A DNA stretch of 64,000 nucleotides from Escherichia coli (GCF_017348835.2 NZ_CP071375.1); one strand, 5' to 3'; counted from the stretch's first letter, positions 12,751-14,731 are shown. Notes: generated from the letters alone by a model not told the origin. Numbers and translations are program-made.

Positions 12751-12871
12751 TGGTGTTTTAAATCCGTTCTGTTAAAAAAACCGTGGCGTATTTGCGCTGC
12801 GGTTTTTTTTGCCTGTTTCACAGGCAACTGAATACGGTTTGGTTGTAGAAAGCGTTCTGACATATACTTTG

Positions 12872-12886
12872 TATTAATAGTTAATA
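12872..12886 (+). promoter_or_regulatory. Candidate operator palindrome upstream of antitoxin gene
   Basis: tattaa-tag-ttaata inverted repeat 15 bp upstream of a GGAG ribosome-binding site and the ATG at 12901. Confidence 0.3.
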
Positions 12887-12900
12887 CCTGGAGATCGCTT

Positions 12901-13131
12901 ATGCGCAAAATTACCTCAGTAAGCGTTGGCGAACAATTAGATAGTTTTATTACCCGGATGGTCCAGTCTGGTCGTTATGGCTCGGCCAGTGAAGTAATGC
13001 GTTCGGCACTTCGTCTATTGGAACAACAGGAATCCAGGGATGAAGCTGTCAGAAATGCTGTTATTGAAGGTCTTGAGAGCGGTGAAAGTTCGATGACGCT
13101 TCGTGATATCGCAGCAGAAAGGAAGCAATGA
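12901..13131 (+). CDS. ParD/CopG-like ribbon-helix-helix antitoxin, C-terminally truncated by IS insertion (stop codon TGA supplied by IS terminal repeat)
   Basis: 76-aa ORF MRKITSVSVGEQLDSFITRMVQSGRYGSASEVMRSALRLLEQQ...; ORF runs straight into the IS inverted repeat at 13129. Confidence 0.7.
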   Translation: MRKITSVSVGEQLDSFITRMVQSGRYGSASEVMRSALRLLEQQESRDEAVRNAVIEGLESGESSMTLRDIAAERKQ

Positions 13132-13170
13132 ACCGCCCCGGGTTTCCTGGAGAGTGTTTTATCTGTGAAC

Positions 13171-14058
13171 TCAGGCTGCCAGATCATTATTTCCGATGGA
13201 AGCATAATAAGCTTTTTCTGCTTCTGCCGGAGGAATATGGCCCAGCCTTTCCAGCAATCGTCGATTGTTATACCAGTCCACCCACGTGAGTGTGGCCAGT
13301 TCCACTTCTGTCCGGTTTTTCCAGCTCTTACGGTGTATTACCTCCGCTTTGTAAAGACCATTGATGCTCTCAGCCATCGCGTTGTCATACGAGTCGCCAG
13401 TACTCCCTGTTGATGCCAGTAATCCGGCTTCCTTAAGCCGCTGCGTGTAGGCCAGCGATACATACTGAGAACCTTTATCACTGTGATGGATTGTGCCGGA
13501 CGGCCGACGGGCCCACAACGCCTGCTCCAGTGCATCCAGCACGAATGTTGTTTCCATGGATGATGAGACCTGCCATCCCACGATGTATCCGGCGAACACA
13601 TCAATGATGAACGCCACATAAACGAAGCCCTGCCATGTGCTTACCCAGGTAAAATCAGCCACCCACAACTGGTCTGGACGTTCTGCCACGAACTGACGGT
13701 TTACGCGGTCGCATGCGGCAACGGCTTTCCGGCTGACGGTAGTGCGGACCTTTTTACCCCGGAGAACACCGGCAAGTCCCATAACTGCCATGAGACGTGC
13801 CACAGTGCATCTGGCCACTCTGATACCTTCCCGTAACAACTGACGCCAGACTTTACGCACACCGTATACCTGGTGATTTTCATCGTATACGCGCTGTATC
13901 TCTTTCTTCAGCCAGTCATCGTGCTGCGCACGGGCACTGCGTTTATCCGGATGATGTCGCTGTTGCTGACAATGGTAATACGTTGACGGGGCAATATGCA
14001 GTTCGCTGCATACCGGTCCGCCCCCGTACTGCTCACGCAGCTTATCCAGCAGTGGCAT
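13171..14058 (-). CDS. IS3-family transposase OrfB (DDE integrase domain)
   Basis: 295-aa [36 protein letters not shown]... Confidence 0.9.
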   Translation of the reverse strand: MPLLDKLREQYGGGPVCSELHIAPSTYYHCQQQRHHPDKRSARAQHDDWLKKEIQRVYDENHQVYGVRKVWRQLLREGIRVARCTVARLMAVMGLAGVLRGKKVRTTVSRKAVAACDRVNRQFVAERPDQLWVADFTWVSTWQGFVYVAFIIDVFAGYIVGWQVSSSMETTFVLDALEQALWARRPSGTIHHSDKGSQYVSLAYTQRLKEAGLLASTGSTGDSYDNAMAESINGLYKAEVIHRKSWKNRTEVELATLTWVDWYNNRRLLERLGHIPPAEAEKAYYASIGNNDLAA

Positions 14059-14384
14059 TATTTTTTCCAGAGGCGGTCGAACTCCGCCTTCGCAAAATAA
14101 GCGGAAGCCTGGCGAAGGATATCGTTACTGCGGCGCAGTTCACGATTTTCACGTTCCAGCTCTTTCAGACGCTGACGTTCAGCGGTGGTGAGTCCACCAT
14201 CACCACTCCCGGTATCCCGCTCATGCTGGCGAACCCAGACACGCAGAGTCTCCGGCGTACAGCCAATCTTTGGGGCAATGGAACAAATTGCCGTCCACTG
14301 TGAGTCATATTCATCCTGACTTTCCAGAACCATACGAATCGCCCGCTGACGGACTTCGGGGGAAAAACGAGTATTTTTAGTCAT
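14058..14384 (-). CDS. IS3-family transposase OrfA (HTH)
   Basis: 108-aa [33 protein letters not shown]...; overlaps orfB start, frameshift arrangement. Confidence 0.9.
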
Positions 14385-14449
14385 CCTGTTTACCTCTTTC
14401 TCAGGGAGTTTAGTCTCCAGGATTTCCGGGGCGGTTCAGCAAAAACATC

Positions 14450-14731
14450 GTGTATAAGCTTAGCGGAAAAGCTGTTGAAGATTTCAGAGGGATCTATGAC
14501 TACACGCTGGGAAAGTTTGGTGAGGAGCAGGCGGATCGCTATACCGACTCTCTCGGCACTTTTCTGGATACACTCTCTCAAATGCCCGAGATAGGGCAAG
14601 ACTATGATGCGATTCCAGAGGTAAAGAAGATCGCATTTAGGTTTCACACTGTTTATTACGTTATAAGAGTCGATGACATTCTCATTGCGCGCATTCTTCA
14701 TCAGTTGATGGAACCTCGCCGTCACTGGTAA
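14450..14731 (+). CDS. ParE/RelE-fold toxin, intact ORF, GTG start, separated from its antitoxin by the IS
   Basis: 93-aa ORF (V)YKLSGKAVEDFRGIYDYTLGKFGEEQADRYTDSLGTFLDTLSQMPEIGQDYD... of typical ParE size; begins 12 bp beyond the IS end. Confidence 0.7.
   Translation: MYKLSGKAVEDFRGIYDYTLGKFGEEQADRYTDSLGTFLDTLSQMPEIGQDYDAIPEVKKIAFRFHTVYYVIRVDDILIARILHQLMEPRRHW

Follow-up and report, generated by a model that had tools for sequence, protein, structure and literature searches.

Closest described systems and the layout of the locus

Judged by sequence, the closest studied relatives of the toxin-antitoxin (TA) module considered here are ParDE2 of Vibrio cholerae (ParD2/ParE2; PDB entries 7B22 and 7R5A) and ParDE1 of Caulobacter crescentus (ParD1/ParE1; 3KXE). 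The module is located between secF and yajD within a 64,000-nucleotide stretch of Escherichia coli DNA (NZ_CP071375.1; the whole stretch is called the window, and positions are counted from its first letter), where it is interrupted by a copy of the insertion sequence (IS) IS629. The Vibrio and Caulobacter systems combine the same two protein families in the same gene order, and their antitoxin, as here, is a ribbon-helix-helix (RHH) protein of about 80 residues with a C-terminal segment that wraps around the toxin. The present locus has a palindrome, a candidate operator, whose GTAT/ATAC half-sites resemble motifs of the V. cholerae parDE2 operator. In contrast to these systems, the module described here is an E. 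coli chromosomal one at secF-yajD, is split by an IS, encodes a ParD short of four residues and is known from sequence alone. The three-component PaaR-PaaA-ParE systems of E. coli O157:H7 include a separate regulator gene; they have a ParE-family toxin in common with the present module and occur in the same E. coli phylogroup. The antitoxin PaaA2 is devoid of an RHH domain (PMC10776004). As our module is a plain two-gene parDE whose antitoxin contains an RHH domain, it is not of the PaaR-PaaA-ParE type.

An IS629 element is inserted in the last codons of parD, in what is an ordinary chromosomal ParD/ParE pair. The element sandwiched by the two open reading frames (ORFs) measures exactly 1310 bp (13129..14438), lies within parD near its 3' end, after codon 76 of 80, and is oriented opposite to parDE. 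The four bases GCAA stand immediately outside each of its ends (13125-13128 and 14439-14442). The features that carry this finding, with their basis, are as follows.

12901..13131, plus strand: parD', an antitoxin gene cut short to codons 1-76 of 80 (ORF list; Pfam; TIGR02606; annotation of E. coli PE164's complete genome)
13125..13128, no strand: target-site duplication GCAA, left copy (the intact allele is recreated only when 4 bp are removed with the IS)
13129..14438, minus strand: complete IS629 of the IS3 family, 1310 bp (99.3% identity to the copy in phage BP-4795; TG..CA ends)
14439..14442, no strand: target-site duplication GCAA, right copy (read directly from the sequence)
14443..14457, plus strand: displaced 3' end of parD, AAA CAT CGT GTA TAA, encoding K H R V and the stop (reconstruction; identical to intact alleles)
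14450..14731, plus strand: parE, an intact ParE-family toxin ORF of 93 residues with a GTG start (ORF list; Pfam; PDB matches)

When the IS and one GCAA are deleted, the antitoxin reads ...AAERKQKHRV-stop and the toxin GTG falls within the last two antitoxin codons, which restores an 8-bp overlap of parD and parE with the sequence GTGTATAA; deletion of three or five bases in place of four breaks the frame and the allele is not restored. The reconstructed 756 bp, from the secF stop to the yajD start, match E. coli F2_81, in which the locus is uninterrupted, at 756 of 756 positions. There the RefSeq annotation has a 243-bp gene for a 'type II toxin-antitoxin system ParD family antitoxin' (80 residues, WP_001226938.1) overlapping by 8 bp a 'RelE/ParE family toxin' (282 bp, 93 residues, WP_053883267.1), and the parE product of the window is identical to the latter. 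This identity and annotation, together with the same layout in O157:H7, indicate that the pre-insertion allele is real and that GCAA is a true target-site duplication. The new parD stop (13129-13131) is the TGA with which the IS begins, so that ParD gains no residues; only K77-H78-R79-V80 are removed, and their displaced codons (14443..14457) lie outside the ParD reading frame after the insertion. The parE start codon is now 11 nt from the end of the IS, against 7 nt for the same interval in the restored allele.

The initial annotation of this DNA had described an ORF at 12901..13131, a second at 14450..14731 with a GTG start, and a 1310-bp IS3-family element with GCAA repeats, all of which are present at those positions. 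It had placed the IS exactly between the two ORFs; 1310 bp do separate them, but strictly the IS sits inside parD. Its proposals that the IS entered four codons before the antitoxin stop and that the genes had overlapped before the insertion agree with the break after codon 76 and with the 8-bp overlap annotated in F2_81. The intact allele that it suggested looking for elsewhere exists uninterrupted in 425 complete genomes and, with 100% identity, in F2_81.

Family assignment, distribution and lineage

The restored 80-residue protein matches Pfam ParD_antitoxin (PF03693) at 1.9e-22 and TIGR02606 with 95.7 bits (cut-off 46.2), and has the N-terminal RHH and the C-terminal toxin-binding region of the ParD family. 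Its best solved relatives in a search of PDB sequences are those of V. cholerae ParD2 (7B22/7R5A, 2.9e-19), collinear over residues 1-69, with further matches to C. crescentus ParD1 (3KXE), Mycobacterium tuberculosis ParD1 (8C24) and 7YCS. The 93-residue protein matches Pfam ParE_toxin (PF05016) at 1e-14 over model positions 1-88 of 89, and at E≤0.01 its PDB-sequence matches are ParE toxins only (7YCS, 8C24, 3KXE and 7R5A; 2.4e-07 for C. crescentus ParE1 and 3e-04 for V. cholerae ParE2), with no match to RelE, YoeB or HigB at this threshold. None of the NCBIfam models matched the toxin at E≤0.001. The ParD and ParE matches are chains of the same complexes (7R5A, 3KXE, 8C24, 7YCS). In the restored sequence, and in the 425 intact genomes, the antitoxin gene comes first, both genes point the same way, and 243 bp and 282 bp overlap by 8 bp; the copy in the window is broken by the IS. 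By every sequence criterion, then, this is a canonical type II ParD/ParE module, and its toxin is a predicted member of the gyrase-poison family. The ParD/ParE-like nature proposed in the initial annotation is thus upheld by Pfam, TIGR02606 and the PDB-sequence matches, which place the two ORFs in families that are partners in the same co-crystals. Its statement that K-12 has no TA module at this position also holds, the K-12 secF-yajD gap being 128 bp.

The 517-bp coding core of the module was searched in 5,426 complete E. coli genomes and was found in 426 of them (about 8%), always on the chromosome between secF and yajD and mostly in O157:H7 and its relatives. The copy is uninterrupted in 425 of the 426. 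The sole split copy is that of PE164, which was also the only genome to cover at least 80% of a query made of the whole interrupted locus. Over 7,841 aligned bases the window differs from PE164 once, at position 14021 inside the IS (C in the window, A in PE164; Gly versus Val at orfB codon 13), which points to a sister isolate or a different version of the assembly as the origin of the window. PE164 is an O108:H9 hybrid of atypical enteropathogenic and extraintestinal pathogenic E. coli (aEPEC/ExPEC) from a pig in Nanjing, and its genome paper is silent on IS629 and TA systems (PMC12233904). Standard annotation has already recognised the module as well as the IS in the public PE164 record, where the truncated protein is named a ParD family antitoxin (WP_153645598.1). 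The 76-residue truncated protein is also found, without a mismatch, in at least three NCBI draft assemblies among the matches listed (GCA_034296255.1, GCA_012359695.1 and GCA_019365205.1), and the search returned 16 further similar places beyond these. Each of the three draft contigs reproduces the parD::IS629 junction, is free of mismatches over 2.5 kb upstream of it and ends 76-371 bp inside the IS. As the same junction recurs in three draft assemblies, the insertion is inherited in a lineage and is neither a singleton nor an assembly artefact.

O157:H7 genomes share this layout, with a nucleotide identity of 99.5-99.6%. The orthologous genes of O157:H7 Sakai, ECs_0461 and ECs_0462, labelled 'transcriptional regulator' and 'plasmid stabilization system protein', occupy the same position as uninterrupted 243-bp and 282-bp genes with an 8-bp overlap; the figure of 99.6% over the 517-bp core refers to other O157:H7 genomes, Sakai itself being outside that alignment. 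ParE of the window differs from that of O157:H7 strain 17B6-2 at one residue at least, E24D. A literature search on ECs0461/ECs0462 found no publication on the locus, and ParDE of this chromosomal type seems not to have been characterised by experiment in O157:H7 and its relatives.

Where module-bearing strains have a segment of about 690 bp, K-12 has a 62-bp spacer with its own terminator, extending from the secF stop to ATTGCGAAAATCCCC upstream of yajD. A divergent Escherichia-like contig (L038; ENA ERZ28760298 contig_17029, 1501-1752) has the first 52 codons of parD only and is without parE; its parD remnant is followed by GATGTATGGAG|ATTGCG, an exact match to the final 11 nt of the K-12-type secF-yajD spacer. 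Given this common junction, the K-12 state may have been derived by deletion from a module-bearing ancestor. Three Logan contigs (L009-L011) were considered as extra IS junctions and rejected, for they end two bases into an A5 run (GCAAAA|A) after parD codon 76; these ends are probably breaks caused by homopolymer errors that mimic a truncated ParD, and they were excluded from the junction count. A matching 1-nt frameshift is seen in a 126-residue 'ParD' (P0005) of another Logan assembly.

Predicted consequences and alternative explanations

The region upstream of parD is untouched by the IS, and the gene's own promoter and ribosome-binding site would still direct synthesis of ParD(1-76). In the shortened protein the RHH DNA-binding domain is intact and the toxin-wrapping segment, by homology, nearly whole, so that repression of the promoter and binding of ParE are probably preserved. 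In V. cholerae, ParD2 by itself suffices for repression, and in its toxin-bound chains residues 79-81 alone are disordered (PMC10776004). As for parE, it now lies 1.3 kb further from the parD promoter, behind an untranslated antisense IS, and would have lost both this promoter and its termination-reinitiation coupling to parD. As is general with IS polarity, such untranslated RNA invites Rho-dependent termination. Owing to this distance and polarity and to the lost coupling, parE expression is probably strongly reduced and the gene silenced. The 8-bp overlap is consistent with coupled translation of parD and parE, which the IS would abolish. The net result would be a disarmed module, its antitoxin outlasting its toxin, and the insertion could persist in the lineage because it would cut expression of the toxin and spare the antitoxin; the opposite case would not survive. 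To this account as a whole, an IS insertion in parD that disarms the module, we assign a probability of roughly 0.85.

Two features lie upstream of parD.

12774..12809, plus strand: terminator-like hairpin of secF (A-run, GC stem, T-run; 15-nt arms, 87% complementary)
12871..12887, no strand: inverted repeat GTATTAA-TAG-TTAATAC, a perfect 7-3-7 palindrome (100% complementary, 14 nt 5' of the parD ATG)

The palindrome, with its GTAT/ATAC half-sites, is a candidate operator of the ParD RHH repressor; the V. cholerae parDE2 operator carries GTA[C/T] motifs (PMC10776004). The terminator-like hairpin belongs, in the alignment with K-12, to the segment of about 690 bp that replaces the 62-bp spacer. 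A perfect 8-3-8 hairpin (12809-12827, TTGCCTGT-TTC-ACAGGCAA) directly follows its T-run and precedes the region of the parD promoter; the divergent allele of L038 shows no conservation of its sequence. A consensus promoter and terminator scan of 12700-14850 gave no sigma-70-like site, either as a parD promoter or as an outward promoter of the IS. A looser scan by hand gave weak candidates only, the best for parD being TTGGTT-18-TATACT, and neither scan found a sigma-70-like site reading out of the IS toward parE. Terminator-like sites on both strands of the same interval number 3, against 2.2 expected by chance.

Several observations count against a disarmed module. The parE ORF is still intact, and the plus strand of the IS contains no significant intrinsic terminator in the scanned interval, so that some read-through into parE is possible. 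Natively, AGGAAG stands 10 nt from the parE GTG with a predicted anti-Shine-Dalgarno duplex of -5.6 kcal/mol, and the IS end offers in its turn a G-rich stretch some 13-15 nt from the parE start at -7.2 kcal/mol. A loss of the parE Shine-Dalgarno sequence, considered as a further cause of silencing, was dropped since these energies are similar in the intact and the interrupted allele and neither site is close to the start. The ParD tail, moreover, may matter: in 26 homologues (59-89% identity), all of 80 residues, its consensus is KHRV and V80 is invariant. On this last point, a scan of viral contigs yielded five usable parD-parE pairs. Five homologous loci, including four close homologues, have xxT GTA TAR as the final parD codons, with the toxin ATG or GTG start embedded there. 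Because the toxin start codon overlaps these codons, the conservation of KHRV is at least in part a dual-coding constraint, and the conserved 8-bp overlap, as judged from these codons, constrains the sequences of both ParD and ParE.

These observations leave room for two other outcomes of the insertion. The module might be split and yet working, with parE transcribed by read-through or from a weak promoter at the IS end, translated, and held in check by ParD(1-76). Both ORFs are intact, parE is identical to the F2_81 allele, the IS plus strand is without a significant terminator and the G-rich stretch at its end could serve as a weak ribosome-binding site, all of which suit such an outcome; nevertheless 1.3 kb of untranslated RNA lies between the parD' stop and parE, the translational coupling is lost and an outward promoter was not detected, and we regard a working module as unlikely. 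It is more doubtful still that both halves are dead, the loss of KHRV having inactivated ParD and the cell surviving through full silencing of parE or because ParE was never toxic enough. Such an inactivation could be read from the strong conservation of the tail, its invariant V80 and the uniform length of the 26 homologues. The conservation coincides, though, with the overlapping toxin start, the RHH domain and the residues up to 76 are intact, and the very last residues of V. cholerae ParD2 are disordered even with toxin bound (PMC10776004).

The remaining alternatives concern the module and the insertion themselves. That the two ORFs are not a TA pair, for example an RHH regulator beside an unrelated small protein, might be argued from the missing NCBIfam match and from the lack of any paper found to mention ECs0461/ECs0462, toxicity and neutralisation at this locus being predictions. 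The Pfam ParE_toxin match nonetheless covers the full length of the 93-residue ORF, the four PDB matches of the toxin are all ParE proteins whose crystallised partners are the top matches of the upstream ORF, and the overlapping two-gene arrangement is conserved, which makes an unrelated pair of genes extremely improbable. An IS copy misplaced during assembly of a repeat-rich genome would be a natural suspicion, as about 30 places in the strain match the IS-containing query and such repeats are a classic source of misassembly; yet the 4-bp duplication is perfect, its removal with the IS restores the intact allele exactly, and the junction recurs in an independent complete genome and three draft assemblies, so that we give an artefact next to no credence. 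The preferred explanation is accordingly the insertion of IS629 in parD with disarming of the module, as set out above.

The IS629 copies and the significance of the split module

The element that interrupts parD contains the following parts.

14058..14384, minus strand: IS629 orfA, 108 residues (ORF list; positions 1-86 of the NF033516 transpos_IS3 model)
13171..14058, minus strand: IS629 orfB, 295 residues, the DDE transposase part (NF033516; joined to orfA by a -1 frameshift)
13987..14103, minus strand: ALIL frameshift-stimulating pseudoknot (full-length match to Rfam RF01497)

Its ends, TGAACCGCCCCGG... and ...CCGGGGCGGTTCA, are of the TG...CA type and form imperfect terminal inverted repeats, of which the first 13 nt are identical. 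The transposase scores 307.9 bits against the IS3 model NF033516 (cut-off 160) and the ALIL pseudoknot at the orfA/orfB junction 116.1 bits (gathering score 50); for PE164, the Prokaryotic Genome Annotation Pipeline notes the joined transposase coding sequence as a 'programmed frameshift'. The initial annotation called the element IS629-like, and it is 99.3% identical over 1310 of 1310 bp to the element of phage BP-4795 (AJ556162), an identity judged against the depositor's annotation of that element as IS629 OrfA/OrfB rather than the ISfinder reference. Identity to the copies in many Stx2a phages is 98.1%. A length of about 1.3 kb with TG...CA ends, the orfA/orfB frameshift, a duplication of 3-4 bp and near-identity to a named copy are all found, and IS629 has been reported to duplicate 3-4 bp at its target without a sequence-specific target (PMC3271280). 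The element thus has the length, -1 frameshift, ALIL, ends and target duplication of IS629 from E. coli O157:H7 and Stx phages, whereas its host here is a pig-associated O108:H9 aEPEC/ExPEC hybrid lineage. The insertion site was seen in 1 of the 5,426 complete genomes and was not compared with the 47 O157:H7 sites catalogued previously (PMC3271280). From its sequence, this IS629 copy is complete and presumably active.

A second full-length IS629, at 16820-18129, is oriented opposite to the first and has 5 mismatches to it (99.6% identity). It is inserted in yajI, around codon 81, and is flanked by a 3-bp duplication of its own, TAA. O157:H7 Sakai and F2_81 both have an empty yajI site, so this is a separate insertion absent from those two genomes; in F2_81 both the parD and the yajI sites are empty. 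The inverted pair (13129-18129) brackets 2381 bp containing parE, yajD and tsx together with the 3' part of yajI. As each copy has its own target duplication, the bracketed segment was not transposed as a composite element; recombination between the two copies could invert it.

Enterohaemorrhagic (EHEC)-type strains carry an IS-excision enhancer. A reversible, poised state can be imagined, in which ParD(1-76) acts as an orphan antitoxin, a silent and intact parE could be re-armed by precise excision of IS629, and the inverted IS629 pair could invert or mobilise the parE-yajD-tsx segment. We consider this very unlikely; if it were true, ParD(1-76) could cross-protect against incoming plasmids or phages that bear parDE.

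The split module is, in substance, a textbook IS insertion into an annotated module, and both kinds of element were already known. The parD::IS629 junction cleanly marks the lineage of the pig-associated O108:H9 aEPEC/ExPEC group; beyond strain typing it has little import. The locus also illustrates neatly, in a natural setting, how a TA module would be disarmed without killing the cell, by an IS at the toxin-proximal end of the antitoxin gene, and PE164 (split) and F2_81 (intact, with identical flanks) form a natural pair for studying this E. coli ParDE.

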